From: Zymomonas mobilis subsp. mobilis ATCC 10988
GTDB taxonomy: Bacteria; Pseudomonadota; Alphaproteobacteria; Sphingomonadales; Sphingomonadaceae
Assembly: GCF_000175255.2 (NCBI RefSeq)
Contig: NC_017262.1
Span: 1,530,001-1,562,000, forward strand
Length of the DNA stretch: 32,000 nt
Direction of reading: 5' to 3'
The notes beneath the pieces are model-generated. The model saw only the letters and a list, made by a program, of their open reading frames with translations. It was not told where the DNA came from and ran no database searches. Made by a program: the position numbers and the translations under genes. This document shows, in pieces, positions 783-20,481 of the stretch. Position 1 is the stretch's first letter. Each line of letters begins with the position of its first letter.

Positions 783-841
783 CGTCTAATCCTCTTTTAT
801 CAGGGGTGGCAGGGACTTTGCCCTGCCATAGGCTGCCCCAT

Positions 842-2317
842 TTAAGCAGCGGTTTTCCAAGGGGCTTTGAACATGCCCCAGACTGGGCTATTGATGGCCA
901 AATCCATGTCACGGGCAAAAATGGCAAAGCCGTCATAACCATGATAAGGCCCCGAATAATCCCATGAATGCATCTGGCGGAACGGTATGCCGGCTTTTTG
1001 AACCGCATATTTTTCCTTGATGCCGGAACCGACCAGATCGGGGCGAATGGCCTCGATGAATTTTTCCAGCTCATAGGTTGAGGCGTCGTCATAAATTAAC
1101 GTGCCTTCTTTGACGTAATGGCCTGTCCGTTGGTAATCATCGTTATGGGCAAATTCATAGCCAGTCGCGACGATTTCCATCCCAAGATCGGTATAGGCAT
1201 TGACGACATGGCGTGACCGCAATCCGCCGACATAAAGCAGCACTTTTTTGCCTTCGAGGCGGGGGCGGTATTTGGCAATCACCGCATCGGCTAAAGGCTG
1301 ATATTTGGCGATAACGCGCTCGGCACCTTCTTTGATCTTGTCATCAAAATTTTCGGCAATTTTCCGTAAGGAAGCGGCAATTTGGCTGGGGCCAAACAGA
1401 TTATATTCCATCCACGGAATACCGTGCTTTTCTTCCATATAGCGGCTGATGTAATTCAATGACCGATAGCAATGGATCAGATTCATCTTGGCCTTAGGCG
1501 CTCGTTCGATTTCAGCCAAAGTGGCATCACCCGACCAGCTACCGATTACCCTCAAACCCATTTCTTCGAGAAGAATACGGGAAGACCACGCATCACCGCC
1601 GATATTATAGTCACCCAAAATATTCACATCATAGGGCGAAGGTTCAAAGGGAACCTGATTACCGTCTTGGTCAAGCACCCAGTCACGAATGACATCGCAG
1701 GCGATATGATGCCCCAAAGACTGGGATACCCCGCGAAAGCCTTCACAGCGCACCGGAACGATGGTTTTTCCGCTGATTTTTTTCTGTTCGCGGGCAACGG
1801 ATTCTATATCATCACCGATCAAGCCGACCGGACATTCTGATTGAATAGTCGTGCCATGATTAAGCGGGAACAACTCGTCAATTTCGGTGAGAATTTTTTT
1901 CAGCTTTTTATCACCGCCGAAAACAATATCTTTTTCCTGATAATCGGAGGTGAATTGCATGGTGACAAAGCTATCCACGCCGGTGGTGCCGTTATAGAAA
2001 TTCCGGCGTTGCGACCATGAATAATGACCGCAACCAACGGGGCCATGACTGATATGAACCATGTCTTTGACAGGCCCCCAGACCACACCTTTTGAACCGG
2101 CATAAGCACAGCCGCGGATCGTCATCACACCCGGAATAGATTTGATATTCGATTTAACGCTGCATTCGCTTAAGGCACCCGGATCGGCTTCGGTGTCGGG
2201 GGCTTTGGCAACCGTCAGATGTTTCTGACGGCGCTTTTTGGCCTTGGCCGGATAGGCTTCAAGCACTTCCTCGATGAGGCGGGTGTTGAAGATGGTTTCT
2301 TCTTCATTCAAGCTCAT
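842..2317 (-). CDS. nifD: Nitrogenase MoFe protein alpha chain NifD (491 aa)
   Basis: The full ORF carries NifD hallmarks ([42 protein letters not shown]). It starts 10 nt after the nifH stop. Confidence 0.95.
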
Positions 2318-2327
2318 CTTGCGCTCC

Positions 2328-3335
<1,008 letters not shown>

Positions 3336-3378
3336 TCATCAGAAAAAAGGAGTGCGATTTATAAATTGTAAGGTTCTT

Positions 3379-3394
3379 TGTTCGAAGCGCGACA
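3379..3394 (-). promoter_or_regulatory. NifA upstream activator sequence (TGT-N10-ACA) for nifH
   Basis: The sequence is TGTTCGAAGCGCGACA (palindromic class, so the same motif on both strands). Its centre is about 95 bp upstream of the -24 element. Confidence 0.75.
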
Positions 3395-3515
3395 AATCAT
3401 ACATTATGATGTCGCAAAACATATTATATTTATAATTTTTAATTTTTTATTATAAAATAATAATATGTGCTTTTAATGCACGGATAAAAGGTAAATTATT
3501 TTACAGGTTAAATTT

Positions 3516-3534
3516 GATATTGATTCTCATTATT
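3516..3534 (+). promoter_or_regulatory. Fur box overlapping the putative -35 of the TonB-dependent receptor promoter
   Basis: GATATTGATTCTCATTATT matches 15 of 19 positions of the Fur consensus GATAATGATAATCATTATC. A possible promoter is TTGATT-17 nt-CATATT. The site lies about 60 nt upstream of ATG 3593. Confidence 0.6.
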
Positions 3535-3592
3535 TTTGTTATCATATTCCCCTTCCATTGCGAGACATTATCAATAAAAAATAGAGGAATGA

Positions 3593-5722
3593 ATGAGAAA
3601 CCCGTTACAGAAATGGGGAATGCTGCAAAGCGGAACATGTCTTGTTGCCCTTTTGCTTTCATCGCCATCACATGCTGCAAAAGGTAAAAAAGAGGATCCC
3701 GCTGATCTGGTGATTACCGCCAAAAAAGACAGCGATGACTATGGGCAAAAACGCAATACGGCGGCCAAGATAGATATTGCCAATCGTGATTTGCCCCAAA
3801 CCGTCAATACTGTATCGGCGCAGTTAATGCGGGATCAGATGGTTCTATCCCAGCAAGATGCCTTGAAAAATGTTCCGGGCGTTTCTTTTTCTACGGGGGA
3901 TGGTCAGCGCGATCAGGTTTTTATCCGTGGTTTTAATGCTTTTGGTGATGAATTTGTAAATGGTTTTCGGGATGATGCCCTTTATTTCAGGGATATGTCC
4001 AATATTGAAAATATCGAGGTTTTAAAGGGGCCATCGGCCGCCCTATTTGGACGCGGATCAGCGGGCGGTATTGTCAATCGGGTCACAAAACAGGCTGATA
4101 CCAATATAACCAATGTGACTTTTACCGGTGGGTCATGGAATGATTATCGTGGTCAATGGGACTTTGGTCGTAACAGCAAAAGAACCGGTAATGGTTTCCG
4201 TTTAACGGGGGCGATCGAGAATGGTGACAGCTATCGCGATCAACAATTTGTCCATCGTTTCGCGATAGCACCCTCTTTCATGTATGGGAAAGGCACGGAT
4301 ACGGTTGTGACGTTTCAGGCCGATTATTTGAAAGATCGCCGAATTGCCGATTTAGGCAACCCTTCTTTGAATGGTCGCACGATCAATGTCGATCACCCCG
4401 AAATCTATTACGGGTCAGCCGATGCGGCTAAATATGACTATACCCAATCCACCGTATTTTCTCAGACGATCAACGCCGTCCATCATTTTTCTGATAATTT
4501 ATCATTAAGGGATGGCTTTCGTCATTATGATTATAAGATGTTTCGGGGCAATACCAGTCCGGCGAGCGGGGTCGTTGATGGATTAGTCCAGCTTTCTCAC
4601 CATCCGGCTTCTCGAGATGAAAGCGGATGGGATAACCAGTTAGAGCTGACGCAAAAAATCGACAGCGGCAAAATTCATCAGACATTGCTTTATGGCTTTG
4701 AAGTTTCTCGTCAAAGTAAACTTTCTACTACCTATGCGACTTATCCCGGTAAAAATGCTTCGGCCGCCGAGAAAGCCAGTTTTTATGTCGATGCCTATAA
4801 TCCGGTTTTGCCCACTATTACAGGGGATGACCTTACCAGTATTACCAACCAGAATCGCGGCATTTTTTATGATTATGGCCTGTATATTCAGGATGCGGTC
4901 GATTTTTCTCATGGATTTAAATTACTGGCGGGTATCCGCTGGGATTCCTTTAGTCAGACGACTTTACCTTTGGCTGGATCCGCCAGCTATGCCCATCGCC
5001 TCGATCATACATGGAGTCCCCGTGTTGGTTTGACCTATGAACCGGATAACCACCAATCCTATTATATCTCGTGGAGTAAAAGTTATCAGCCCTCTGGTGA
5101 AACGCTGAATATTGTGGCCACGCAAGCGGATTTGATTCCTTCTGCGACAACGTCAAAGGAAATAGGTGCCAAATATAACCTGTGGCATGATCGCTTAACG
5201 ATACAGATTGCCGGTTTTATCATTAAGAAAACCCATATTCAGGCGACCAATCCACTGGATAATAGCACGATGGCGATAGGCACCCAACGCAATGAGGGGG
5301 CTGAATTTTCGGCCACCCTTGATGTCGGGAAAGATATTCATTTGATTGCGGGCTATGCCTATTTAAGAACCAAAAATCTGGCTTCGGCTGTGCCGGCTTA
5401 TGTTGGGAAAGAAGGCACCTTGGCACCTCATAACCAAGGCAATTTCTATATCACCAAGAGTTTTGGCAAGCATTTCGGTATTGGCGGCGGCATGAATTAC
5501 GTTGGTAATCGTTGGGCTGATCCAAGCAATACCGTTATTTTACCGCATTATGTGACGGGTGATGCCATGGGATGGGCACAATTCGGGCGATATCGTTTCC
5601 AGATCAATGCCTATAATCTATCGAATGCCCATTATGTCGTTTCAGGACATGGCACCAATGCCAATCTGAACATGCCGGGCGCTCCACTGAATTTCAGGGG
5701 AACGATCAGCGTGTCTTTATAA
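3593..5722 (+). CDS. TonB-dependent outer-membrane receptor, siderophore-receptor-like (709 aa)
   Basis: It has a signal peptide (…LLLSSPSHAA), a TonB-box-like DLVITAKK and plug motifs (NVPGVSFS, RGFN…, IEVLKGPSAALFGRGSAGGIVN), followed by a long beta-barrel region. GAGGAA lies upstream as an RBS. Confidence 0.85.
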   Translation: MRNPLQKWGMLQSGTCLVALLLSSPSHAAKGKKEDPADLVITAKKDSDDYGQKRNTAAKIDIANRDLPQTVNTVSAQLMRDQMVLSQQDALKNVPGVSFSTGDGQRDQVFIRGFNAFGDEFVNGFRDDALYFRDMSNIENIEVLKGPSAALFGRGSAGGIVNRVTKQADTNITNVTFTGGSWNDYRGQWDFGRNSKRTGNGFRLTGAIENGDSYRDQQFVHRFAIAPSFMYGKGTDTVVTFQADYLKDRRIADLGNPSLNGRTINVDHPEIYYGSADAAKYDYTQSTVFSQTINAVHHFSDNLSLRDGFRHYDYKMFRGNTSPASGVVDGLVQLSHHPASRDESGWDNQLELTQKIDSGKIHQTLLYGFEVSRQSKLSTTYATYPGKNASAAEKASFYVDAYNPVLPTITGDDLTSITNQNRGIFYDYGLYIQDAVDFSHGFKLLAGIRWDSFSQTTLPLAGSASYAHRLDHTWSPRVGLTYEPDNHQSYYISWSKSYQPSGETLNIVATQADLIPSATTSKEIGAKYNLWHDRLTIQIAGFIIKKTHIQATNPLDNSTMAIGTQRNEGAEFSATLDVGKDIHLIAGYAYLRTKNLASAVPAYVGKEGTLAPHNQGNFYITKSFGKHFGIGGGMNYVGNRWADPSNTVILPHYVTGDAMGWAQFGRYRFQINAYNLSNAHYVVSGHGTNANLNMPGAPLNFRGTISVSL

Positions 5723-5734
5723 AAGAGGCGGGTT

Positions 5735-6595
5735 CTATTCAGCTCTCCTTTCGAGGAGAGTTGAAGAAAGATAATCAGATAAAAAATCCGCTATTTTTTT
5801 GAGCGAAAGCGGTAACGCGATTATCTGCATCTCTTCCAAAAAGCGCCGTTCATTTCTGGTCAGATTCTCGATATCGACTAGGGCAAAATGAGGCGCTTTT
5901 GATCTTTTGATTATCTGCCTTGCAAAACTTCTCAGCATTTGGTCATCAAAATGGCAACCGATGAACAGGAAGCTGCATGATGACCGCCTTTCTTGCACTG
6001 ATTCAGGGATGGGGGTCTGAATATCAATTTCGGTCAAGACTTCGACATAATCGGAATCTGAAATCAGATAATTCTGATGCGGTGAAACAGAGCCATGCGG
6101 TTTGTAAAGAAGGGTTTGCCATTCTTTAACGCTTTCCATCGGGACTTCTTCGCCCGTGGCATCATAAGCTGTGAACCAGCGATATTCGTTAATCGCTGCG
6201 TGATTGATGCCTTGAATTTCGCCCCAGTTCAAAGTCTTGTCTTGGGATAAAGCCTGACGCATGGCGCCATCATACCAACTGTCAACGATAAGCGGGGGAT
6301 GAAGCGCGGCGATAAGCTGATGCAGTGGGGAAGGGGGCACCGGATTTTCAAAGGCGGCATTCATAATCGCCGTCAGGGTTTTTCGATGGCGGCGGCTTTC
6401 GATATATTGCGCGGCAGCCCAAGGATTACCTTTTGCCCGTTTAGGAAGGGCGACCTTCTTCCCGAAAAAATCGGCTAGCCCCTTTATGGAAACCGGCGTC
6501 CACTGATTGGCGGTGATCGCGGTGACATCGGGGCCTAGATAAAAAGCGAGCGCCTGACGCGATAAATGGTCAGAAATATCTGACAGGATATCCAT
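5735..6595 (-). CDS. SIR2-like (SIR2_2-type) domain protein, last gene of the nifB operon (286 aa)
   Basis: Four blocks resemble, from memory, the SIR2_2 family: AFYLGPDVT (in place of FlGAGvS), PLIVDSWYDGAM (in place of iiTTNYDxLlE), LYKPHGSVSPHQNYLISDSDY (LHGs…DY) and FLFIGCHFDDQMLR (llFlGySlxDxxlr). Its start overlaps the nifT stop (TGATG at 6593..6597). Confidence 0.55.
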   Translation of the reverse strand: MDILSDISDHLSRQALAFYLGPDVTAITANQWTPVSIKGLADFFGKKVALPKRAKGNPWAAAQYIESRRHRKTLTAIMNAAFENPVPPSPLHQLIAALHPPLIVDSWYDGAMRQALSQDKTLNWGEIQGINHAAINEYRWFTAYDATGEEVPMESVKEWQTLLYKPHGSVSPHQNYLISDSDYVEVLTEIDIQTPIPESVQERRSSCSFLFIGCHFDDQMLRSFARQIIKRSKAPHFALVDIENLTRNERRFLEEMQIIALPLSLKKIADFLSDYLSSTLLERRAE

Positions 6596-6807
6596 CAGTT
6601 TTCTTCTGCGCGTTTACGCGCTTCGATAGTAATCGGTAATGGGGTATCGGCGGCCATATCTGGCAATTCCAATGTCCATCCGTTTTTTAAGCGTATCCAG
6701 CCGCCCCAAATATCAGGCTTTTCCTGTTCGATAACCGCTTCTTCAAGGTCTTTTTTCGGAACATAGACGGAAAGCCCTCTTGCTGTTTGGCGCAGCATTA
6801 TTTTCAT
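6595..6807 (-). CDS. nifT: Nitrogen fixation protein NifT/FixU (70 aa)
   Basis: MKIMLRQTARGLSVYVPKKDLEE…WGGWIRLKNGWTLELP matches the NifT/FixU pattern. The gene follows nifZ. Confidence 0.85.
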   Translation of the reverse strand: MKIMLRQTARGLSVYVPKKDLEEAVIEQEKPDIWGGWIRLKNGWTLELPDMAADTPLPITIEARKRAEEN

Positions 6808-6827
6808 ATTGTGTCTCCGAAAGAAGT

Positions 6828-7082
6828 CTAAAGCGCGATGTCTAATTCTCGTTTCCGCATACCAACAATTTTGCCACGTTCGACGAAATCGACGGCATAA
6901 ATATAATAGCGTTGAAGAAAGACACCGATATCGCGGATATAACCGACATCGCCTTTGTTAATCAGGATTTCGCCAATATCGGCACCGATAAAAGTCCCGT
7001 CATTTTTGATATAAAGGCGTGATTTTACCTTGGTTCCAACGGGAAAGACCGGTGCTTTTTGAATTTCATTTTCGTCATTCAT
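6828..7082 (-). CDS. nifZ: NifZ (84 aa)
   Basis: The NifZ-domain pattern is present: KNDGTF…GEILINKGDVGYIRDIG…YIYAVDFVERGKIVGMRKREL. Confidence 0.85.
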   Translation of the reverse strand: MNDENEIQKAPVFPVGTKVKSRLYIKNDGTFIGADIGEILINKGDVGYIRDIGVFLQRYYIYAVDFVERGKIVGMRKRELDIAL

Positions 7083-7115
7083 CCATTCAGCCTTTCCCGA
7101 AGTCAGAATTTAAAA

Positions 7116-7310
7116 TTAGGCCGGAATGCAGGTGTCTGGCATCGGGCAGATGGCCGCACATTGCGGTTCGTCAAACTGACCGTCGCATTCGGTGCAGCTA
7201 TTGGGATCGATGATGAAAACATCGCCTTTCATTTTGATTGCTGAATTGGGGCATTCAAATTCACAAGCGCCACAAGCGGTGCAATTTTCAGCAACAATTT
7301 TATAAGACAT
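7116..7310 (-). CDS. fdxN: 2x[4Fe-4S] ferredoxin (FdxN / ferredoxin III type, 64 aa)
   Basis: The [12 protein letters not shown] and CTECDG…C motifs are present. The gene lies immediately downstream of nifB, as in other alphaproteobacterial nifB-fdxN units. Confidence 0.85.
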
Positions 7311-7349
7311 AGTTCCAATCCTTCTACTAAAGTAATGATAAACGGATAT

Positions 7350-8819
7350 TCAGGCTATCCGGCGATTCTCTTTGGAAAACCGTGCCGCATACCAAGAAGA
7401 AAGGCCACTTTCTATCCAGTCATGGGCATAATCGACATTGACTTCGATACCAGCTTTTTCCAGTTTTTCCCGAGGACAATCACCAATACGGGCGCATAAA
7501 ACCGCCTGAATACCTTCTAAGGCTGTGATAATACTATCCAGCCGTTGGTCATCGCCATTGCCTTCCGCACAATAAAGCGGAATTTTGCGATGACTGATGA
7601 ATTTTACGCCATAAGGGGAAACTTCGTAAATCTGAAATTCTTGGGCATGGCCAAAATGCTGGTTAATCCGCCCGCCTTGTTTGGAAACAACGGCAGCAAG
7701 GATAGTTGGCTTGGCCTCTAATTCGGCCAATTTCTTCTCAGCCGATTTCTTCTGTTCCAAATGTTCACCCCGCTCTTGGGCAACAATTTCACGATAGCTG
7801 GCACGATTGGCGGGGTTATATTCCAGTGTTTCTGGGATTTTATCCATCGAGAAGGCTTGTCCCCGATCCTCCCCCAATAAACCAATGGCATCCGCCCGAC
7901 ATTGCCGACAATGGCGCATCAATTTTGTGCCATCGGCTAATTGATTTTGAAGTGCCATCAATTCCTGATGGCTGGGCTCTCTCTGTCCGGTCAGGCCAAA
8001 ATGGGTTCCATGTGCCGGATCAGAAATCAGCGGCATGATATTGTGAAGAAATGCGCCTTTTTCTTTGACGACCCGATTAACTTCTAACAAATGCGTGTCA
8101 TTGATGTTCGGTATCATGACTGAATTGACTTTGGTGAGAATGCCGCGTTCTTTCAGCAATTCTAAAGCCAGCATTTGCCGTTCATGCAGAATTCGGGAGG
8201 CTTCTCTCCCCGTCCAGCGTTTATTCTCGAAAAAAATCCAAGGATAGATTTTTGCCCCGATTTCAGGATCAACCATATTGATCGTCAAAGTGACATGATC
8301 AATATTCATTTTGGCAATGTCGTCGATACAATCCGCCAAAGCCAATCCATTGGTTGAAAGGCAGAATTTTACATCAGGGATAGCCTTGGCTACCTGTTCA
8401 AAGGTTTCTTTGGTTTTTTCCCAATCGTAACAGGCATCTCCGGGGCCTGCGATACCCAGAACTGAAAGCTGAGAGACTTCATTGGCAACGGCAATGACTT
8501 TTCGCAGCGCTTGTTCCGGTGTCAGCCTTTCCGAGACGACCCCCGGGCGGCTTTCATTGGCGCAGTCATATTTTCGGTTGCAATAATTACATTGGATATT
8601 GCAAGCCGGAGCGACCGCTACATGCATACGGGCAAAATATTGATGTGCCTCTTCGGAATAGCAGGGGTGGTCTTTGACTTTTTCCCAGATATCATCTGCC
8701 AAATCCTTTGCATCTGACATTTTACCACAGGCCGATGAAGCACAACCCTGTGTCGCGGGGCGGGGGCTAGGGATACCCCCGTTGGGTTCCAATGGCTGGA
8801 TATGGATGAGCTGGGACAT
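7350..8819 (-). CDS. nifB: FeMo-cofactor biosynthesis radical-SAM protein NifB with C-terminal NifX-like domain (489 aa)
   Basis: It has the CNIQCNYCNRKYDC radical-SAM motif and a C-terminal NifX/NafY-like domain (…VSKQGGRINQHFGHAQEFQIYE…). I chose ATG 8819 (AGGA 6 nt upstream). The track start at 8840 is a GTG only about 8 nt from the predicted sigma-54 transcription start. Confidence 0.9.
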   Translation of the reverse strand: MSQLIHIQPLEPNGGIPSPRPATQGCASSACGKMSDAKDLADDIWEKVKDHPCYSEEAHQYFARMHVAVAPACNIQCNYCNRKYDCANESRPGVVSERLTPEQALRKVIAVANEVSQLSVLGIAGPGDACYDWEKTKETFEQVAKAIPDVKFCLSTNGLALADCIDDIAKMNIDHVTLTINMVDPEIGAKIYPWIFFENKRWTGREASRILHERQMLALELLKERGILTKVNSVMIPNINDTHLLEVNRVVKEKGAFLHNIMPLISDPAHGTHFGLTGQREPSHQELMALQNQLADGTKLMRHCRQCRADAIGLLGEDRGQAFSMDKIPETLEYNPANRASYREIVAQERGEHLEQKKSAEKKLAELEAKPTILAAVVSKQGGRINQHFGHAQEFQIYEVSPYGVKFISHRKIPLYCAEGNGDDQRLDSIITALEGIQAVLCARIGDCPREKLEKAGIEVNVDYAHDWIESGLSSWYAARFSKENRRIA

Positions 8820-8857
8820 AACATTCCTAACGGCTAACACGCTTTACCAAAAGGATA

Positions 8858-8873
8858 TGCAATGGGCGTGCCA
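8858..8873 (-). promoter_or_regulatory. Sigma-54 (-24/-12) promoter of the nifB operon
   Basis: The minus strand reads TGGCAC-GCCCA-TTGCA, a perfect consensus match. Confidence 0.9.
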
Positions 8874-8928
8874 TAAGCTGACATCGCTTTAAATTCAGGA
8901 AAATGGCCTTTTTGTCTCAGACATAAAT

Positions 8929-8944
8929 TGTCTTAACTCTTACA
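8929..8944 (-). promoter_or_regulatory. NifA UAS (TGT-N10-ACA) for nifB
   Basis: The sequence is TGTCTTAACTCTTACA, centred about 65 bp upstream of the -24 element. Confidence 0.7.
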
Positions 8945-9027
8945 AAATTGTCGGTATCGGTAAAATTTTTGGAATAATCAGACATTATTCGCCAAAAATA
9001 AAGTAATGGCATTACAAAAAAACAGCT

Positions 9028-9093
9028 TTAGAATTTTTTGATAGATATCCCGTTTTTCCGCAGCGCATAGCCTATCTGGCGCGGGGTCATGCC
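9028..9093 (-). pseudogene. nifA: Detached 3' end of nifA (21 codons plus stop), encoding the HTH recognition helix
   Basis: The minus-strand translation is GMTPRQIGYALRKNGISIKKF*. It continues the nifA frame exactly once the IS and one TA copy are removed. The TPRQ.GYALRK pattern is the conserved NifA/Fis-type helix. Confidence 0.9.
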
Positions 9094-9095
9094 TA

Positions 9096-9105
9096 GGCTC
9101 AGGAC
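9096..9105. repeat. IS left terminal inverted repeat
   Basis: GGCTCAGGAC, identical to the reverse complement of 9933..9942. Confidence 0.85.
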
Positions 9106-9168
9106 CTGTTAATTTCTTGAGTTGAGCGGGCTGTTGTGATTCACAGGTTTACCGATAGAGGTGAAGCT

Positions 9169-9932
9169 GTGAGTGACGTGTTTTTGCTGTCTGAGCACCA
9201 GATGGAACGGATTAAGCCGTTTTTTCCACTGGCGCATGGTGTGCCGCGTGTCGATGACCGTCGTGTCCTGAGCGGGATCGTTTACGTGATCCGCAACGGC
9301 CTTCAGTGGAAAGACGCCCCGAAAGCGTATGGCCCGCACAAGACTTTATACAACCGGTTTATCCGGTGGAGCCGCCTGGGTGTCTTTGACCGGATCTTCG
9401 TCGCCCTGACGGAGCAGGCAGGCCGTTCGAAGCGTCTGATGATCGATGCAACACATCTGAAAGCACACCGGACAGCGGCCTCCCTGCTCAAAAAGGGGCT
9501 TTTCCCCGCCATATCGGACGCACGAAAGGCGGACTGAACTCAAAGCTTCACGCTGTATGCGATAGTCAGGGCCGCCCTGTCCGGCTGCATCTGACCGCAG
9601 GTCAGGTCAGTGACTTCAAAGGCGCGGATGTTCTGCTGGCAAATCTGCCGGAAGAAACACAAGAAATTCTCGGGGACCGGGGATACGACAGTAATAAAAT
9701 CAGACAGTCTCTCGCAGACCGGAATATCACCGCCTGTATTCCGCCGAAGAAGAACCGGAAATCAAAGCCGCCTTACGACTGGCATCTGTATAAAAAGCGT
9801 CACCTCATCGAAAATATGTTCGCAAAGCTCAAAGACTGGCGGCGTGTCGCAACACGATACGACCGGTGCGCTCACACATTCATGTCAGCAATCCATATCG
9901 CAGCAAGTTTCATCTTCTATCTCAAAGAATGA
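9169..9932 (+). CDS. IS transposase (OrfAB fusion, DDE), needs a -1 frameshift near 9492..9498
   Basis: Frame 0 reads (GTG 9169) SDVFLLSEHQMERIKPFFP…LMIDATHLKAHRTAASLLKKG and stops at 9537. The -1 frame is open from 9390 with no start codon and reads AFPRHIGRTKGGLNSKLHAVCDSQGRP…GDRGYDS…IENMFAKLKDWRRVATRYDR…, ending with TGA at 9930..9932. The DDE residues are split across the two frames. The start codon choice (9136 or 9169) is uncertain. Confidence 0.8.
9492..9498 (+). other. Candidate programmed -1 ribosomal frameshift heptamer A-AAG-GGG
   Basis: This X-XXY-YYZ-type slippery site lies in the 148-nt overlap of the two transposase frames. Slipping here joins …LLKKG to AFPRHIGRTKGG…. Confidence 0.55.
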
Positions 9933-11583
9933 GTCCTGAGCCTAGGATACGAGCGGCTTTTGCCTGCACCCAACCGGCTTGTTCCATAGCGTCGATCAGT
10001 TGTTCTTTCTGGCTACGAAATTCCGATTGTGTCGTTTTTTCCTTGGGAAAAGCTAAATCTGTCTTGTCTGATTCCGCATTGGATGCAGCCTGACAATGCT
10101 GGGCAGAAGGACATTCGCTTATCTCGCCTTCTGAACCATGATTTTTGCAGACATGCGGAGTCTTTTCTTCTTCGCGATGCCAGAAAATAGAGGACAGACA
10201 ATTGTCATTGTAACAGGTGAAATCTTCGGCGGTAATTTCTGTATTTCTGGCAAGAGTAGCTGTCCGCCGAATACAGTTTTCAAGCTCTCGGATATTACCC
10301 GGAAAATAACAATGGGACAGAACATCCAAGGCATTTTGATCAATGGTCAGATGGGTTTTGTTTTCCAGATTGAAATGCCGCAAGAATTCTTTCGCCAGCA
10401 GAGGAATATCTGACGGATGTTCACGCAAAGGGGGAAGAAAAATGGGAATGACGCTTAGGCGATAGTAAAGATCGGCTCTGAAATTGCCACGGCTGACCGC
10501 CTCTTCCAAATTGACATTGGTTGCCGCGATGACACGGACATTAACCTTTAAGGTTTTGGTGCCGCCAACCCGTTCAAATTCGCCTTCTTGTAAAACGCGT
10601 AATAATTTGGCCTGGAAATTGGGTGATATTTCGCCGATTTCATCCAGAAGAAGAGTGCCGCCATCTGCCAGCTCAAAACGGCCTTTCCGCATTTGGGCAG
10701 CGCCGGTAAAAGCCCCTTTTTCATGCCCGAATAATTCGGATTCCAGAACCGATTCCGGCAAGGCTGCACAGTTTAATTTGATAAAAGGCAGTTCTTTTCG
10801 GGGGGATGCCTGATGAATGGCTTGGGCGAAAAGTTCTTTCCCCGTGCCAGATTCTCCGCGTAGCAAGACTGTCACATTATTTTTGGCAATCAGATTGATT
10901 TTTTGGAGGATCGATCGAATGATTGGGCTGTCCCCGATAATACGGGGGTGAGGCATATCTTCTGCCTGCCGAGGAGCGGTATGGCTTGATTGCCGGAGCA
11001 GAAATTCATGTTCGCGCCGGATCATCTGATGCAGTCTTGCCGTTTGTCCCAAAAGAGCCGCAACCATCGATAACAGGCGGGCATCTCTATCCGGTGCCAG
11101 AGCCTCTCTTTCATTTCTGGGCGTCGGGCGGTCTATCAATAAAATACCGGAGACTTTATTCCGATCCAAAATCGGAACGCCGATGACGCAGCTTTTTTGA
11201 TTGATATGCCAAATATGAGACCGGCTATTTGAAAAATACGGGTCTTTGGAAATATCCCTGATGATGACTGGCATTTTGCCCGTCACAATTTGTCCGACAA
11301 TTTGTTCGGGGATAGAATCAAAATATATCTTGGCACCTTGCTGGTCACTTTTCGCACCAACCAGAATTTCAGCTTCCTGATCTTCATCAAAAAATGCAAT
11401 AATCGCATGATCGAGATCAATAAAGCTTTCAAGAACAGAAATGACCCGCTTGATAAGGGTGACCGTTTCCATCGGCGCACAGAGAATTTTTGAAATTTCA
11501 TAAAGGCCGAACAAGGCCATATCTGGCCAAGCCGTTCTGTTCCCTAGCGACATATCTTTATAAGCAAATTGTTTTGAAGGCAT
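9922..11583 (-). pseudogene. nifA: nifA, sigma-54-dependent nif activator, truncated by IS insertion (547 native codons plus 6 IS-encoded codons)
   Basis: The ORF has an N-terminal GAF-like region and an AAA+ domain with GESGTGKE (Walker A), GAFTGA and DEIGE. It carries an exact Cys-X11-Cys-X19-Cys-X4-Cys motif (C425, C437, C457, C462; 10198..10311). The C-terminus reads …EQAGWVQAKAARIL, then GSGLIL* read from the IS right end (native sequence ends at 9943). AGGGGA lies before ATG 11583 as an RBS. Confidence 0.9.
9933..9942. repeat. IS right terminal inverted repeat
   Basis: GTCCTGAGCC is the reverse complement of the left terminal repeat. Confidence 0.85.
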
Positions 11584-12122
11584 GGTCAGATCCCCTATTC
11601 TGTTATCTAAACGGGGGGAGAAATGGCTTTTGATGAGGTCGAAATTACTCGAGCTCTATTGAAAGTCAGGATAGCTCATCATCAACAAAGTGCAACAATA
11701 AAATAAATAAGAATCAATATATGGATTTTTATAAGATAAAAAATGCTTTAAATATAAATAAGTTACTAGCATTTAACACGCAGAATGAAAGCCGCCTATT
11801 TTTTATAGGATAGATATCAGGGGGGTTCGTCCTGTCCTTTGTCCGATTTTAAAATATCGAATTTTGGGAGAAAGATATTGTGTTAAATAAAATAATAACA
11901 AAATATTCATCTATGCTTTTATTAAAATTTAACATTGTAACTTAAAATTATAAAATTTTTTGAAATAGATATCATGATTATCTGGTTGTTTTTTTTACAT
12001 AGCCAATATTATTGAAATATAAAATTACAATCACTTATTTTTATATAATATTTTATTACTCGATGCTATTTGAGATAACTCTTTAGATTTTTCTTGCTTT
12101 TATCTTTGTATTTTTGAAATTT

Positions 12123-12141
12123 AATAATGATTATTACCTTC
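12123..12141 (+). promoter_or_regulatory. Fur-box-like site upstream of the second TonB-dependent receptor
   Basis: AATAATGATTATTACCTTC matches 13 of 19 positions of the Fur consensus, about 90 nt upstream of the ATG. Confidence 0.4.
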
Positions 12142-12231
12142 AATTTGTATATTTATATTTATTTCTATTTGATTTTTATAATAAAATTTTTAAAATTGCC
12201 CGATCATTGATATTTTTTGATGGGGCGGGTA

Positions 12232-14502
12232 ATGCAAAAAAGGCAATCCTATAAGACGCTGCTTTTATATTCTGCAATATTATCAATAGGATTGATGACC
12301 GAAAGCAAAGCGGAACCCCCCGTTGATTACAGTAAAAATGATTCTGTTTTGGATCGCGACTCTTCTCAAAATGATTCGAATAAAAAGAAGCCGTCGATAT
12401 CCCATCAGAAATCAGGGCAAGAGGTCGCTTCCGCACAAGACATCACCGTTAATGCCAAAATAGAAAACGGTACCGGAGCGAGAACCGCTTTACCGGTCGT
12501 CAATTTTGGCCCTTTGGGTGATATAAAGCCGGAAAACGCCCCTTTTTCAATTTTAAGTGTGCCTCATGATGTTATCCGCAACCAGCAAGCGCGGAATGTG
12601 AATGATTTGATGCAATATTTGCCTTCGGTGCAGCTGGAAATGCGCGGTGATCCGGGAACTTCCCGCCCTCAATCACGAGGCTTTGAAGCGGATGTGATTG
12701 CCAATAGCCGCATGGATGGTTTTAATATTGCGACCACCACGCCTTATGCTGCCGAGCAGTTTGAAAATCTCCAAGTTTTGAATGGGTTGGCCGGTGCGAT
12801 CTATGGCCCTCAAAATCCGGCAGGCACCTTTGAATATACGTTAAAAAGACCAACCACCGAAATGATGGAGGATTTTTCGGTCGGAATCGACTCCCGTGGC
12901 ACCGTAACTGAAGCCGCTGATATTTCAGGATCGACGGGTAAAAACAACTGGTTCGGCTATCGCGTCAATCTGGTGCATGGTGCCGGTTCCAACTATGTCC
13001 GAACAGGGCATATCAATCGTAATTTGGTGAGTGGCAGTTTCGACATCCATGTCGATCCCCAAACCGTTATCGAATTGAATGCCAGCCATTATGTCTATGA
13101 TATCAAAGGCGGCGCACCCGGATTTTCTTACAGTAACAATATTCAACTTCCAAAGGCGCCCGATCTTAGCACTCCTTATCTGGGGCAAAGCTATGCTGGA
13201 TATAACGCCCAGACAGATACGGCCTCTGGTAAAATCAAACATCAATTCGGTGACAATTGGAGCCTTGTTGCCGGAGGCTTATTTCAGAATGCGTGGCGGG
13301 ATGTCTTTGCCAATGCCAATACTTTGATTGATAATATAGGCGATTATAAACAGACGATTGCCTCGGCTGCCACGGCCTATCGATTTAAAATTGCCAGCAA
13401 TCTTGCCTATTTAAACGGGCATTTCCATACCGGATTTGTGCGTCATGATGTGGCTTTGGGTTCCAATGGCTATGTCATGAGCAATTATAACCCAACCAGT
13501 AGCCAGAGTTTTTCTTTAGGCACCAGCAATCTTTATAATCCTACCCGATTTGATGGCACGCGCCCCCGTTCCTCGGGTAGTTATCGTTCAGCCATTGCCC
13601 GCAATCAATCGCTGATTGTCAGCGATACGATTACCTTTAACAAGCATTGGTCGATCTTGGGTGCCTTTAGTTGGAGCTGGATGACATCTTCAAGCTGGAA
13701 TAAGGCCGGAACCCGTACTGCCCATAATTATACCCAAGGCGCTTTTAGCCCGAATACCAGCCTGATTTATCATCCTATTGAAAATCATACCGCTTATTTT
13801 ACATGGGGGCGCAGTATTCAGCAGGGCATGACGGCACCGGCTGGAAGTGCCAATGTCAGCCAGATTCTTAACCCTTATGAAAGCGAGCAATATGAGCTGG
13901 GCTATAAGGTGAAATGGCGCAATTTGTCCTTGAATATCGACGGTTTCAGAATGACCCGACCTTATGCCTATGTCGATACAACCACGAATGTTTATGGCAT
14001 GTATGGCACCCAGCGGAATTGGGGTTTTGAATTCCAGATGGCGGGTCATATCCGTCATGACCTGTCGGTATTGGGTGGGGTGACATGGCTGGATGCCAAA
14101 GTCGGTTCGACGGGCAATCTGACAACTTCCCACAAGGAAATTGTCGGGGTGCCACCTGTCCAGTCGAATATTCTGATTGATTATACTTTGCCATTTTCAA
14201 AAGAGAGTTTGGCAAATGGTTTGGCGATTAACGGGAGCGTCCGTTACACTGGAACGCGGGCGGCGAATAACACCAATACGACATATGCGCCCCAATTCGT
14301 AACGGCGAATATTGGTATCCGCTATCCTTTCAAAATGGCGAATAAACCTTGGGTTGCCCGTTTTACCGTCAATAATATCATGAACGAACATTATTGGGCT
14401 TCGGTCTATCCATCTTCTATCAATGGGGCTGCCGGAGGCACCAACAGTGCTTATGCCGGTTTACCGCGAACCTATTCCTTTACTTTGGAATGCACCCTTT
14501 AG
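12232..14502 (+). CDS. TonB-dependent outer-membrane receptor (about 756 aa)
   Basis: It has a signal peptide (MQKRQSYKTLLLYSAILSIGLMTESKA), a low-complexity linker, a TonB-box-like DITVNAK, plug motifs (RGF…, NLQVLNGLAGAIYGPQNPAGT) and a long barrel. The start is uncertain (12217 TTG, 12220 ATG or 12232 ATG). Confidence 0.8.
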   Translation: MQKRQSYKTLLLYSAILSIGLMTESKAEPPVDYSKNDSVLDRDSSQNDSNKKKPSISHQKSGQEVASAQDITVNAKIENGTGARTALPVVNFGPLGDIKPENAPFSILSVPHDVIRNQQARNVNDLMQYLPSVQLEMRGDPGTSRPQSRGFEADVIANSRMDGFNIATTTPYAAEQFENLQVLNGLAGAIYGPQNPAGTFEYTLKRPTTEMMEDFSVGIDSRGTVTEAADISGSTGKNNWFGYRVNLVHGAGSNYVRTGHINRNLVSGSFDIHVDPQTVIELNASHYVYDIKGGAPGFSYSNNIQLPKAPDLSTPYLGQSYAGYNAQTDTASGKIKHQFGDNWSLVAGGLFQNAWRDVFANANTLIDNIGDYKQTIASAATAYRFKIASNLAYLNGHFHTGFVRHDVALGSNGYVMSNYNPTSSQSFSLGTSNLYNPTRFDGTRPRSSGSYRSAIARNQSLIVSDTITFNKHWSILGAFSWSWMTSSSWNKAGTRTAHNYTQGAFSPNTSLIYHPIENHTAYFTWGRSIQQGMTAPAGSANVSQILNPYESEQYELGYKVKWRNLSLNIDGFRMTRPYAYVDTTTNVYGMYGTQRNWGFEFQMAGHIRHDLSVLGGVTWLDAKVGSTGNLTTSHKEIVGVPPVQSNILIDYTLPFSKESLANGLAINGSVRYTGTRAANNTNTTYAPQFVTANIGIRYPFKMANKPWVARFTVNNIMNEHYWASVYPSSINGAAGGTNSAYAGLPRTYSFTLECTL

Positions 14503-14535
14503 GGAGTCGTTCTTCTTTTCCTCGCTCATGATGTC

Positions 14536-14580
14536 AAAAGCCAAGCGGGTATTTTTTGGAATATCCGGCTTGGCTTTTCT
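14536..14580 (+). terminator. Rho-independent terminator after the receptor gene
   Basis: AAAAGCCAAGC…GCTTGGCTTTT forms a stem of about 10 bp followed by a T-run. Confidence 0.7.
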
Positions 14581-14757
14581 AATTATTAAAAAGCGTCAAG
14601 ACGCGGATTCCGCTCTTGTCTTTTTATAAAAGATTTACTTGTCGCTTTTTTGTGAAATCTTTTTCAAAAATTCTTGTTGTCGGCAGAGTTTAATTTCAAA
14701 AATCTCTTGAACTTTTTACGGAAAGGCTTTCTTTTCAGCGACATAATGTGTTTGTTT

Positions 14758-14773
14758 TGTCACTTTTGCGACA
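14758..14773 (+). promoter_or_regulatory. NifA UAS (TGT-N10-ACA) for the rnf operon
   Basis: The sequence is TGTCACTTTTGCGACA, centred about 73 bp upstream of the -24 GG. Confidence 0.7.
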
Positions 14774-14806
14774 ATAAATGCCGAGAAAAGGCGCATTTGC
14801 TCTGAA

Positions 14807-14820
14807 AAATCACCAATTTA
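14807..14820 (+). promoter_or_regulatory. Possible IHF site between the rnf UAS and promoter
   Basis: AAATCACCAATTTA fits WATCAANNNNTTR with one mismatch. Its position between the UAS and the -24/-12 element is typical for IHF-assisted looping. Confidence 0.25.
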
Positions 14821-14836
14821 GCGCTAAATATAAGAG

Positions 14837-14852
14837 TGGCATAAGATTTGCT
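14837..14852 (+). promoter_or_regulatory. Sigma-54 (-24/-12) promoter of rnfABCDGEH
   Basis: TGGCAT-AAGAT-TTGCT lies about 120 nt upstream of the rnfA start. Confidence 0.8.
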
Positions 14853-14970
14853 CAAAAAATTTACAAAGAACCCATTCCATATTTCGTCTGTCAGTTGATA
14901 TATCCGGCGGGAATATGAACAAGGGGGCGTAGCTTTTCGCCTTCAGACCTCCTGAGGAAGGAATAAAACA

Positions 14971-15552
14971 GTGACGGATATACTACTTCTGGTGGTAAGT
15001 GCCTGTCTGGTCAACAATGTTATTCTAACGCGCTTTTTAGGTTTATGTTCCTTTATGGGTGTAACTACGCGCGTTGATACTGCTGTCGGGATGGGGGCGG
15101 CCTGCACCTTTGTTATTACCACCTCTTCTATGGCAAGTTGGGCTTTGGAGCATTGGTTACTCGCCCCCTTTGGTCTGGGATATCTTCGGACGGTCACTTT
15201 TATTCTGATTATCGCTTCGGCGGTTCAGCTGACGGAATCGTTTTTTCGTAAATTCTCGCCGACTTTGTTTCGGCTTTTGGGCATTTATCTGCCGCTTATC
15301 ACAACCAATTGTGCCGTTTTGGGCATTACCTTGCTGTTGGTAGAACAGCATTATGGATTTGTGGACAGCACGGTTTTCGCTTTTGCTTCCTCGGTTGGAT
15401 ACAGCCTCGTTATGGTGCTGTTTGCGGGATTACGTGAAAGATTGGCGTTATCGGTAACGCCTCGTTTATTTGAAGGCCCTCCTATCGGTTTTGTGACGGC
15501 AAGTTTGCTGGCGCTGGCTTTTATGGGTTTTTCTGGAATGTCTGTCCACTAG
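14971..15552 (+). CDS. rnfA: Rnf electron-transport complex subunit A (193 aa, GTG start)
   Basis: MTDILLLVVSACLVNNVILTRFLGLCSFMGV is a typical RnfA/NqrE-like polytopic membrane protein. GGAAGGA lies upstream as an RBS. Confidence 0.9.
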   Translation: MTDILLLVVSACLVNNVILTRFLGLCSFMGVTTRVDTAVGMGAACTFVITTSSMASWALEHWLLAPFGLGYLRTVTFILIIASAVQLTESFFRKFSPTLFRLLGIYLPLITTNCAVLGITLLLVEQHYGFVDSTVFAFASSVGYSLVMVLFAGLRERLALSVTPRLFEGPPIGFVTASLLALAFMGFSGMSVH

Positions 15553-15568
15553 ACGGGAAGAAAGAACG

Positions 15569-16231
15569 ATGTTGATAGCCATTATAAGCCTGACTGTCAT
15601 GGGGCTGGCACTTGGCCTGATGCTGGGGCTGTCCTCGAAATTGCTGCGGGTAGAAGAAGATCCGATTGAAGGCCAGTTACAGGCTTTGTTGCCGGGATCA
15701 CAATGCGGGCAATGCGGTTATGTCGGCTGTTCACAATATGCGGCCGCTTTGGCGCATGATGGCGCGCCTGTAACCCAATGCACCCCTGGGGGTAGAAGTG
15801 TTGCTGAAGCCTTGGCCAAGGCCTTGGGTGTCAGCCTTGATCTGTCACAAGCGGAAGATATTGGCCCCAAAACCGCTTTGATCCATGAAGATTTATGTAT
15901 CGGATGCACGGCCTGTATTCGCGATTGTTCCAGTGATGCCATTATCGGGGCGGCGCGTCAGGTGCATACGATTATTCCTGATGTCTGCCATGGTTGCAGC
16001 AAATGTGAAACGGCTTGTCCGACGGGGGCTATCGAAATGGTGCCGGTGGCGGTCACGTTGGACAACTGGCATTGGGATAAACCCAATCTGGCAATACAGG
16101 ATAGTTTAGCTAATCCAGCCTTTGCGGCGCAGGCATTGGCCAATCGGATAACGGATGAATCCGATGGTGGACAGGGTAAAGCCTATAAAGCTTCTCTTGA
16201 AAAAGAAGCCGAAGAAGAAAGCTTGGGCTAG
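15569..16231 (+). CDS. rnfB: Rnf complex subunit B, Fe-S protein (220 aa)
   Basis: It has an N-terminal TM helix, a CGQCGYVGC…C cluster motif, two ferredoxin CxxCxxCxxxC(P) motifs and an acidic C-terminal extension. Confidence 0.9.
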   Translation: MLIAIISLTVMGLALGLMLGLSSKLLRVEEDPIEGQLQALLPGSQCGQCGYVGCSQYAAALAHDGAPVTQCTPGGRSVAEALAKALGVSLDLSQAEDIGPKTALIHEDLCIGCTACIRDCSSDAIIGAARQVHTIIPDVCHGCSKCETACPTGAIEMVPVAVTLDNWHWDKPNLAIQDSLANPAFAAQALANRITDESDGGQGKAYKASLEKEAEEESLG

Positions 16232-16241
16232 GGGAGCAGAG

Positions 16242-17705
16242 ATGAAATTATTTTCAGTCCGTGGGGGTATCCATCCCAGTTATCGGAAACAGGCGACTAC
16301 AGCTAAAAAGATAGAGCCTTTGCCGATTGTGCCATTCTATTTTCTGCCTTTGCGGCAACATTCCGGCGCTCCGGCGGAAGCGGTTGTTAATATTGGTGAC
16401 CATGTTGGGAAGGGGCAACTTTTGGCGGCTCCGGCTGGCCGGATATCCGCGCCTATTCATGCTCCAACCTCTGGTATTATTCGGGCAATCCAGAATATGA
16501 CCGCGCCTCATCCTTCCGGTTTGCCGGGGATGACGATGGTTTTGGAAGCGGATGGCAAAGATAGCTGGGCGGAATTACCCGAAGCCTATAGTGATCCTTT
16601 CGCCGTCGATCCGCAGTTAATTCGTGAACGGGTGGCTTGGGCTGGCGTTGTTGGTTTGGGTGGCGCGGCTTTTCCGGCAGCTGTCAAATTAGAACAGAGC
16701 AGCCAGAAACCCATTAAAATGGTGGTGCTGAATGGTGCCGAATGCGAACCCTATCTGACGGGCGATGATCGGGTAATGCAGGAATATGCCGATGAAGTTA
16801 TTTCCGGCGGCCGTCTGATTGCCCATGCGGTAGGTGCGCCGAAGGTCGTGATCGGGATTGAGCGGAACAAGCCCGAAGCGATCGCGATAATGAAAAAGAC
16901 CGCCGAAGCCTATGACAATGTCGAGATCGCGGATTTACCGGCGCAATATCCGGTAGGTTCTGCCCGTCATTTGGTGCAAGCCTTGACCGGTCTAGAAATT
17001 TCAGCCCGCACCCGTATCGCTGATGTTGGGGTTCTGGTTCAAAATGTCGGGACTGCTCGCGCGGTTTGGCGTTCTGCCCGTTATGGCGAGCCGCTTATCT
17101 CGCGTATTGTGACGGTTTCTGGCGGCGGCATGAATGACCCGAAAACATTAGATGCACCGATTGGGTCACCGGTTAAAGCCTTGATTGATTTCTGCGGCGG
17201 CATGAATGAAAAAGCCGAACAGATCGTCACCGGAGGCCCTTTGATGGGGGTCGGCCTGCCGAATATTGATGTTCCGGTTATCAAAGGCACCGCCGGTATT
17301 TTGGCTTTGACTTCCGAAGAAATGGATCATCGCCCAACCGAAGCCTGTTTGCGTTGTGGCCGTTGCGTTGATGTTTGCCCTTGTGGTCTAAGTCCGGTTG
17401 AAATGGCCAGTTTGATCCGGCGTGATAAATTGGAAGAAGTTGAAAAGCTTCAGGTGATGGACTGCTTTTCTTGCGGTTCCTGTTCTTATGTTTGTCCGTC
17501 CCATTTGCCTTTGGTGCAATATTTCAACTATGCCAAGGGCGAAATCTGGAATCGGCGTGACGAAGAGAGAAAACAGAACAAGATCAAGGCCTTGGCCGCT
17601 GCCAAAGAGGCGCGTCTGGCTGAAGTCTTGCGCCAGAGGCAACTTGCGGCAGAGCGGGCGAAAGCCGCCAAAGCTGCCGCCAATAAAGAGGAAAAGGCAG
17701 TTTAA
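16242..17705 (+). CDS. rnfC: Rnf complex subunit C (487 aa)
   Basis: MKLFSVRGGIHP…, GLGGAAFP (NADH/FMN site), and two 4Fe-4S motifs (CLRCGRCVDVCP, CFSCGSCSYVCP) are present, with a Lys/Ala-rich tail. I chose ATG 16242 (GGGGAG RBS) because the track start at 16155 overlaps rnfB. Confidence 0.9.
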   Translation: MKLFSVRGGIHPSYRKQATTAKKIEPLPIVPFYFLPLRQHSGAPAEAVVNIGDHVGKGQLLAAPAGRISAPIHAPTSGIIRAIQNMTAPHPSGLPGMTMVLEADGKDSWAELPEAYSDPFAVDPQLIRERVAWAGVVGLGGAAFPAAVKLEQSSQKPIKMVVLNGAECEPYLTGDDRVMQEYADEVISGGRLIAHAVGAPKVVIGIERNKPEAIAIMKKTAEAYDNVEIADLPAQYPVGSARHLVQALTGLEISARTRIADVGVLVQNVGTARAVWRSARYGEPLISRIVTVSGGGMNDPKTLDAPIGSPVKALIDFCGGMNEKAEQIVTGGPLMGVGLPNIDVPVIKGTAGILALTSEEMDHRPTEACLRCGRCVDVCPCGLSPVEMASLIRRDKLEEVEKLQVMDCFSCGSCSYVCPSHLPLVQYFNYAKGEIWNRRDEERKQNKIKALAAAKEARLAEVLRQRQLAAERAKAAKAAANKEEKAV

Positions 17706-18781
17706 TGAGTGGCAGTATCGCAATCAGCGGGCCCTTTACCCATGCGGATAACAGTGTCTCGCGCACCATGCAGACGGTTATGCTGGCGCTTGTTCCAGCG
17801 ACCTTGTTTGATCTTTGGCTGTTTGGCTGGCCTGCCATTTTCCTTTTTGGTCTGACTATTCTTTTCTGTCTTTTGATTGAGGCGGGATGCCTGATGCTGG
17901 CAAAACGTCCGGTGCTTCCGGCGTTAAAAGATGGTTCTGCGATTTTAAGCGGCTGGCTTATTGCGATGAGTTTACCGCCTTGGGCACCTTGGTGGATTGC
18001 TTTATTGGGGGCTATTTTCGCGATTGCTTTGGCAAAACAGGTTTTTGGTGGTTTGGGACAAAATTTGTTTAACCCTGCCATGGTTGCCCGTGTCGCTTTG
18101 CTGATTTCTTTTCCGTTACAAATGACGCAATTTGCTGCCCCACATCCCTTATTGACTGCCCATGCGCCAGATATTCTGACAGGGCTAAAAATTACTTTGG
18201 GTTGTGAAGGTAATCTGGATTCTTTGTCGGCGGCTTCTGCGCTGGGTCATATCAAAACTGAATTGACGCGGGGGATTCCGGTCACCCGCACGGTTCAGAC
18301 CTTGCCCGGATTAAAAGATATGCTGTTGGGGATTAAGCCCGGTTCTATGGGTGAAACCTCGGCAATCTTTATTCTGTTAGGGGGTCTGTTCTTGATGTGG
18401 CGGCGGATTATTAGCTGGCATATTCCGGTTTCAATGTTGTTGACGCTGTTTTTATTGGGAAGTCTGTTTTCAGCTATCAATCCGGCACGCTTTGCTTCTG
18501 GTCTTATTGAATTGCTGTCCGGTGCTTCGATGCTGGGCGCGTTCTTTATTGCAACCGATTATGTCACCTCTCCGGTATCGAAAAAAGGTCAGGTCATATT
18601 CGGCTTTGGGGTAGGCTTCCTGACATGGATTATTCGTAGCTTTGCCGGTTATCCAGAAGGGGTGGCCTTTGCCGTGTTGCTGATGAATGCGACGACCCCC
18701 ATCATCGACCACTATAGCCGCCCTCGTGTGTTCGGTCGCACTCGCCAAGGACAACCGGTGGCATTTGGGGACAAGAAATGA
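17705..18781 (+). CDS. rnfD: Rnf complex subunit D (358 aa)
   Basis: It is a polytopic NqrB/RnfD-like membrane protein. Its start overlaps the rnfC stop (TAATG). Confidence 0.9.
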   Translation: MSGSIAISGPFTHADNSVSRTMQTVMLALVPATLFDLWLFGWPAIFLFGLTILFCLLIEAGCLMLAKRPVLPALKDGSAILSGWLIAMSLPPWAPWWIALLGAIFAIALAKQVFGGLGQNLFNPAMVARVALLISFPLQMTQFAAPHPLLTAHAPDILTGLKITLGCEGNLDSLSAASALGHIKTELTRGIPVTRTVQTLPGLKDMLLGIKPGSMGETSAIFILLGGLFLMWRRIISWHIPVSMLLTLFLLGSLFSAINPARFASGLIELLSGASMLGAFFIATDYVTSPVSKKGQVIFGFGVGFLTWIIRSFAGYPEGVAFAVLLMNATTPIIDHYSRPRVFGRTRQGQPVAFGDKK

Positions 18782-20152: not shown

Positions 20153-20164
20153 GGAGGCAAAAAG

Positions 20165-20431: not shown

Positions 20432-20435
20432 AGTT

Positions 20436-20472
20436 AAAAAGCCTGTCCTTGAAAAAGGGCAGGCTTTTTTTT
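20436..20472. terminator. Bidirectional rho-independent terminator between rnfH and the convergent receptor gene
   Basis: AAAAA-GCCTGTCC-loop-GGGCAGGC-TTTTTTTT forms an 8-bp stem (one G-U pair) flanked by an A-run and a T-run. Confidence 0.85.
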
Positions 20473-20481
20473 GATGTCTTT

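Follow-up and report, generated by a model that had tools for sequence, protein, structure and literature searches.

We analyzed a stretch of 32,000 nucleotides (nt) from Zymomonas mobilis subsp. mobilis ATCC 10988 (ZM1; contig NC_017262.1, positions 1,530,001 to 1,562,000), referred to here as the window, in which nifA, the gene for the transcriptional activator of nitrogen fixation, is flanked by nifB-fdxN-nifZ-nifT, nifHDK, and rnfABCDGEH and is interrupted near its 3' end by an insertion sequence (IS). The split had been described in an earlier note made from the letters and their open reading frames (ORFs). The features at the site, in window coordinates, are the following.

9922..11583, minus strand: truncated nifA ORF of 553 amino acids (aa), consisting of native residues 1-548 and the IS-encoded SGLIL.
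9940..11583, minus strand: native nifA codons 1-548, encoding a GAF domain, a sigma-54 AAA+ domain with GAFTGA, a Cys-rich linker, and helices 1-2 of the helix-turn-helix (HTH).
9922..9939, minus strand: IS-encoded nifA tail SGLIL and stop codon.
9028..9093, minus strand: detached nifA 3' end, reading GMTPRQIGYALRKNGISIKKF before the stop codon, that is, G548 and then the lost residues 549-568.
9096..9942, plus strand: IS5-family (IS427-like) element of 847 bp with GG...CC ends, its transposase antisense to nifA.
9094..9095: TA target-site duplication, left copy, from the empty site of locus L005 and the DNA flanking other IS copies.
9943..9944: TA target-site duplication, right copy, from the same comparisons.
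9096..9105: left terminal inverted repeat, GGCTCAGGAC, 10 nt, perfect.
9933..9942: right terminal inverted repeat, GTCCTGAGCC, 10 nt, perfect.
9169..9537, plus strand: IS orfA, 122 aa, DUF4096 (Pfam).
9495..9932, plus strand: IS orfB, DDE domain (DDE_Tnp_1), in the -1 frame relative to orfA.

The translated 553-aa product ends in EQAGWVQAKAARILGSGLIL (in a longer print of the terminus of the minus-strand ORF, AKAARILGSGLIL) immediately before its stop codon, and is identical to WP_049779046.1, TQL27225.1, and TQL28655.1 of Z. mobilis. Pfam places a GAF domain at residues 42-180 and Sigma54_activat at residues 215-381 (E 8e-73), together with an AAA lid, and GHEKGAFTGA can be read directly in the translation. 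With a ZM4-type NifA as the tblastn query, residues 1-548 matched 11583..9940 and residues 547-568 matched 9096..9031 at 100% identity, G548 being kept in the truncated protein via a codon at the IS end. Deleting 9096..9944 in silico (849 bp, the IS plus one TA) yields an open 568-aa NifA that scores 669.9 bits against TIGR01817 (cutoff 528.85) and covers model positions 2-534 of 534. These matches identify the disrupted gene as nifA and the repaired protein as a NifA equivalog, and the gene as encoded is a disrupted member of the NifA (TIGR01817) family. The break point where the ORF runs into the IS end, the detached end continuing in the same frame at 9093..9028, and the 568-aa reconstruction, all put forward in the earlier note, are each borne out.

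The element has the anatomy of an IS5-family insertion sequence. When orfA and orfB are joined at CAAAAAG (9489..9495), they yield a 254-aa fused transposase that is identical to TQL28656.1, matches 254-aa WP-type entries, and scores 279.2 bits against NF033580 (IS5 family; cutoff 110, positions 4-257 of 258), and the sequence is compatible with a programmed -1 frameshift between the two frames. The target in nifA is CC-TA-GG, within the final 60 bp of the gene. The extent of the duplication was settled by the flanks of other IS copies (loci L004, L006-L013, and L024), which read either CTAG or TTAG at the end of the left flank and, wherever a right flank was seen, CTAG at its start. A 4-bp CTAG duplication, with an IS of 845 bp, was ruled out by L010, where a left TTAG stands opposite a right CTAG; therefore, TA alone is duplicated and the element is 847 bp long. 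L011 shows a left flank only, TTAG. Along with the inverted repeats, the DUF4096 and DDE_Tnp_1 domains, and the empty site described below, this agrees with the initial identification of the insert as an IS with a TA duplication. A sigma-70 consensus scan revealed no outward promoter toward nifB inside the IS ends.

Intact NifA proteins of 568 aa that are 98-99% identical are encoded by ZM4 (AAV90440.1), NCIMB 11163 (ACV75957.1, CP001722), NRRL B-14023 (CP003715), NRRL B-1960, and several metagenome-assembled genomes (MAGs). The window aligns to a ZM4-type locus (L005) with 99.0% identity across 1..9097 and 9940..21585, the two alignment segments sharing a 7-nt overlap, GCCTAGG, and the empty site of L005, GTCATGCCTAGGATACGAG, is identical to the junction obtained by the in-silico repair. 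A comparison with sister strains, proposed beforehand together with a check of read support, has thus supplied both the empty site and the intact 568-aa protein, and both junctions were likewise found in assemblies of independent Sequence Read Archive (SRA) runs. The nifA-side (right) junction is present in the Logan assemblies of SRR066225, SRR3925454, and SRR3925455 (L001-L003), with contigs that are 100% identical to the window and end at 9917, and the nifB-side (left) junction in those of SRR066225 and SRR3925454 (L014, L015), with contigs that begin at 9121. The contigs break exactly 30 nt (k-1, with k=31) into sequence common to other IS copies, which is the behavior expected of a multicopy repeat. 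In addition, a single NCBI assembly has the truncated NifA TQL28655.1 and the transposase TQL28656.1 as neighboring accessions. Three separately sequenced cultures carry the insertion, which is therefore fixed in the ATCC 10988 (ZM1) lineage.

The C-terminus of the repaired NifA aligns to a NifA structure (9qq6_C, E 7e-12) and to 2m8g, an NtrC-family DNA-binding domain. In an AlphaFold2 model of a 99%-identical intact protein (P0001; 70 aligned sequences, mean predicted local distance difference test score 76.6, block means 72-88 across residues 521-560), the C-terminal helices span residues 525-535, 540-547, and 551-560, and the IS cut falls after Gly548, in the turn between the latter two. 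Helix 3 is the recognition helix in Fis/NtrC-type domains. Since the cut lies after residue 548, in the turn of the HTH, the recognition helix (551-560 in the model) is absent from the truncated NifA, in which the last 20 native residues (549-568) are swapped for SGLIL. As encoded, only positions 6-29 of 42 of Pfam HTH_8 are matched, and a complete C-terminal Fis-type HTH is obtained only once the IS is removed in silico. Removal of the recognition helix had been stated at the outset, and the position of the cut in the model and the HTH_8 remnant both confirm it.

NifA binds TGT-N10-ACA via its C-terminal HTH, and HTH mutants and deletions of Klebsiella pneumoniae and rhizobial NifA have lost activation that depends on this upstream activating sequence (UAS). 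Tethered at TGT-N10-ACA, NifA contacts the sigma-54 holoenzyme by looping (for the consensus, PMC4999443). In the ATCC 10988 (ZM1) lineage, an IS5-family element transposed into CC-TA-GG near the nifA 3' end, giving a product that stops five IS codons past Gly548 and retains the GAF sensor, the sigma-54-activating AAA+ domain, the Cys-rich linker, and two helices of the C-terminal domain. Without the recognition helix, the TGT-N10-ACA enhancers would not be read by NifA; without enhancer tethering, NifA would not be concentrated at the nifH, nifB, and rnfA sigma-54 promoters, and at native NifA levels, nif expression would be abolished or strongly reduced. The nifA allele is thus probably a loss-of-function allele or a severe hypomorph fixed in the strain lineage, and we infer that ATCC 10988 is Nif-minus or impaired in N2 fixation.

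The predicted targets of this activator were located by a pattern that pairs a UAS (TGT-N10-ACA) with a sigma-54 promoter (TGGCAC-N5-TTGC), and are listed here with the neighboring nifB.

3379..3394, minus strand: nifH UAS, TGT-N10-ACA pattern match.
3279..3293, minus strand: nifH sigma-54 promoter, TGGCACGCTGTTTGC, -24/-12 pattern.
8929..8944, minus strand: nifB UAS, TGT-N10-ACA pattern match.
8859..8873, minus strand: nifB sigma-54 -24/-12 promoter, TGGCACGCCCATTGC, -24/-12 pattern.
14758..14773, plus strand: rnfA UAS, TGT-N10-ACA pattern match.
14837..14851, plus strand: rnfA sigma-54 promoter, TGGCATAAGATTTGC, -24/-12 pattern.
7350..8819, minus strand: nifB, 489 aa, full length.

The window shows no enrichment of TGT-N10-ACA by itself (6 matches vs. 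4.3 expected), and the telling feature is not the UAS count, but the pairing of the UAS with -24/-12 elements before three operons. Sixteen other ORFs (nifD, nifH, nifT, nifZ, fdxN, nifB, rnfABCDGEH, two TonB-dependent receptor genes, and a SIR2_2-domain gene) are full length and align without gaps to ZM4-type proteins at 98.8-100% identity. The earlier note had held that the three promoter pairs are intact and that the nif and rnf ORFs are full length; all three pairs were located, and the ungapped alignments confirm the second point.

The interrupted allele also carries three substitutions, D142N, E227Q, and F312L, that are unique to it in comparison with 12 NifA proteins of subsp. mobilis and three from more distant Zymomonas. 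In an alignment with 120 further NifA proteins, N142 and Q227 are found occasionally, and every one of the others (120/120) has phenylalanine at position 312, which lies in the Walker-B strand GGTLFLDEIGE.

10648..10650, minus strand: nifA codon 312, F312L, with GGTLFLDE changed to GGTLLLDE.

The origin of F312L could be decay after inactivation, hitch-hiking, or adaptation. Changes unique to this lineage in comparison with six other loci were counted at the codon level, with the following nonsynonymous/synonymous (N/S) results.

nifA: 3/4 (Fisher p=0.33 vs. other strains' nifA).
Seven nif genes: 6/6 (Fisher p=0.16 vs. 15/43 in other strains' nif genes).
Seven rnf genes: 0/10 (Fisher p=0.015, nif vs. 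rnf within the lineage).

Suggestive within the strain and not significant for nifA alone or against the nif genes of other strains, these counts give a weak hint that nif, but not rnf, genes are under relaxed constraint in this lineage, and the pattern of substitutions in nif vs. rnf gives no date for the insertion. The initial description of the event as probably recent needs to be qualified: with three lineage-unique changes in the allele, and with an insertion that is present in three separately sequenced cultures and is therefore fixed in the lineage, the event may not be very young.

Several points weigh against the reading of a disabled NifA or limit it. C-terminally truncated NifA proteins of K. 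pneumoniae and Rhizobium meliloti retain some activity, and residual or even sufficient nif expression is possible. The relaxed-selection signal is weak, as the 6N/6S of the lineage's nif genes differs from the 15N/43S of other strains only at p=0.16. In the literature searched, we found no phenotype data for N2 fixation by ATCC 10988, and no mention of a disrupted nifA in Zymomonas. No second nifA was seen among the best 120 homologues, which do not amount to a whole-genome scan and which contain one NifA cluster per Z. mobilis subspecies. Finally, enhancer-binding proteins that lack a DNA-binding domain can, if present at high concentration, activate from solution (PMC2831303).

The last point leads to the alternative that survives best, although we consider it unlikely: the truncated NifA may be functional, oligomerizing and activating the sigma-54 holoenzyme from solution, such that the strain fixes N2 with perhaps altered regulation, and the unique Walker-B change F312L might help its activity. 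The truncated protein retains an intact GAF domain, an intact AAA+ domain with its GAFTGA motif, and an intact Cys linker, and no nif/rnf ORF or promoter is damaged; solution activation is documented for this protein class, and F312L is conservative, though at an otherwise invariant site. However, solution activation generally needs overexpression (PMC2831303 and NifA truncation studies), the strict conservation of the UAS before all three operons suggests that tethering matters, and the 6N/6S of the nif genes in this lineage is compatible with lost constraint. Enhancer-independent AAA+ activators similarly lack enhancer binding, but in those cases the proteins or promoters have evolved that way, whereas the promoters here keep canonical NifA enhancers. 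Another parallel is offered by K. pneumoniae and R. meliloti NifA proteins engineered to lack the C-terminal HTH, reportedly constructed by Morett and colleagues in 1988 and by Huala and Ausubel in 1989, in which DNA binding was removed with the central activating domain left intact, and for which, as expected here, UAS-dependent activation is lost and weak UAS-independent activity is possible. Unlike those laboratory constructs, which were usually overexpressed, the ATCC 10988 allele is natural and natively expressed, drops only helix 3, and gains five foreign residues.

It is also conceivable, but a good deal less probable than a functional truncated protein, that the insertion is a reversible switch, with precise excision restoring nifA when N2 fixation is selected, either by recombination between the 7-bp GCCTAGG direct repeats or by transposase action. 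The direct repeats at 9091-9097 and 9940-9946 and the perfect terminal repeats would allow this, the regulon is otherwise intact, and the IS, with its intact transposase frames and multiple copies, is probably active. By contrast, the insertion is present in each of the six occurrences seen (6/6), the runs yielded no contig that was mixed or had an empty site, F312L would persist after excision, and precise excision of IS5-family elements is rare. Overall, there is only a slim chance that the HTH-less NifA is not dead, whether because it is enhancer-independent with F312L as an adaptation or because the IS acts as an on/off switch for diazotrophy; if this were true, ATCC 10988 would be a natural experiment on how much tethering NifA needs. 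The idea that the insertion in nifA was created during assembly, by the collapse or misplacement of a repeat, is rejected as having next to no probability. The element is multicopy in the genome, and repeats of this kind are a well-known cause of assembly errors, but the junctions recovered in three independent read-set assemblies (SRA runs) link unique nifA- or nifB-side DNA to the outermost 24-26 nt of the IS. Two further NCBI protein records also carry the insertion, which together with the read sets rules out a one-off artefact, and the TA duplication is perfect, with an exact empty site in sister strains.

Protein accessions were used to estimate the IS copy number in ATCC 10988. AEH63594.1, encoded by a 32,283-bp plasmid of the strain, has the same sequence as the orfA product, and near-identical chromosomal transposases are present in the strain's records (AEH62933.1 and AEH63281.1), indicating that the IS is multicopy, with no fewer than two more copies on the chromosome and one on a plasmid. 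Copies sit at differing sites in other genomes and metagenomes. In an exact scan for the 26-nt IS end, using one genome per species, the sole match was Acetobacter fallax LMG 1636, whose copy (L004, 4770..5616) differs from the nifA element at 4 of 847 positions (99.4% DNA identity).

Plasmid copies in Acetobacter, Gluconobacter, Kozakia, and Komagataeibacter share 85-88% identity with the IS in nifA, and the 90% protein cluster of the transposase is mostly from Acetobacteraceae. Look-up of a 133-aa start variant of orfA gave no match, and that of the 122-aa form gave matches on short metagenome or Logan contigs only. The Acetobacteraceae IS427-type elements resemble the present one in their length of about 847 bp, GG...CC ends, and TA duplication at CTAG-like targets, as well as in their 254-aa transposase, a -1 frameshift fusion of orfA (DUF4096) with orfB (DDE); they differ in that their hosts are acetic acid bacteria, whereas Zymomonas is a sphingomonad. 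Because the relatives are all from Acetobacteraceae and the host is not, we infer that the IS originated in acetic acid bacteria and was recently acquired horizontally by this Zymomonas lineage, with sugary fermentations inhabited by both as a plausible setting. ISZm1068, an IS5-like element of Z. mobilis strain CP4 (Galeros et al., 2001, cited in PMC4094786), is likewise an IS5-family element active in Zymomonas, but its name implies 1068 bp rather than 847 bp, and the relatives of the present element are all from Acetobacteraceae. Identity with ISZm1068 is therefore unsupported, the two being set apart by size and relatives, not by sequence alignment.

Two neighboring genes of the nif region deserve a brief description. 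The TonB-dependent receptor gene at 3593..5722 (plus strand), between the SIR2_2 gene and nifH, encodes 709 aa both here and in ZM4, and is reduced to two small ORFs in NCIMB 11163 and one MAG (L018 and L021, in both at about 15012..15500), a strain-variable deletion within the nif region. The SIR2_2-domain gene at 5735..6595 (minus strand, 286 aa) lies directly after nifT, with its start overlapping the nifT stop in the nifB-fdxN-nifZ-nifT unit, and is kept in all fetched Z. mobilis loci that reach far enough past nifT.

Elsewhere in the window, a tRNA-Leu(UAA) gene of 302 nt (26167..26468, minus strand) is interrupted by a 216-nt group I intron in the anticodon loop, between U34 and A35. The intron matches Rfam RF00028 at 26252..26444 with 54.8 bits (gathering score 50; E 1.8e-11), and ARAGORN missed the unspliced gene and called the spliced exons as tRNA-Leu(taa). 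Six other Z. mobilis genomes, ZM4 and NCIMB 11163 among them, carry this gene with 100% identity over its 302 nt. An intron-split tRNA-Leu(UAA) is a classic arrangement in cyanobacteria and plastids, and no mention of such an intron in Zymomonas was found in the literature searched.

Returning to nifA and its probable loss of function, gene inactivation by an IS is commonplace, and the present case is a known type of event that is conceptually unsurprising and of practical interest to Zymomonas workers. WP_049779046.1 (RefSeq), TQL27225.1, and TQL28655.1 are named "nif-specific transcriptional activator NifA" in public databases with no indication of the disruption; because the truncated product carries the NifA name, the defect goes unflagged by automatic pipelines. 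The nifA locus may also document recent IS traffic from acetic acid bacteria to Zymomonas. Z. mobilis is under development for N2-fertilized bioethanol, work for which ZM4 has been used, and ATCC 10988 (ZM1) is the type/lectotype strain and common in laboratory and modeling work. If nifA is disabled, results on N2 fixation would not be transferable to ATCC 10988 without repair of the gene, and pan-genome or comparative studies and metabolic models that count this strain as nif-complete would mislead.

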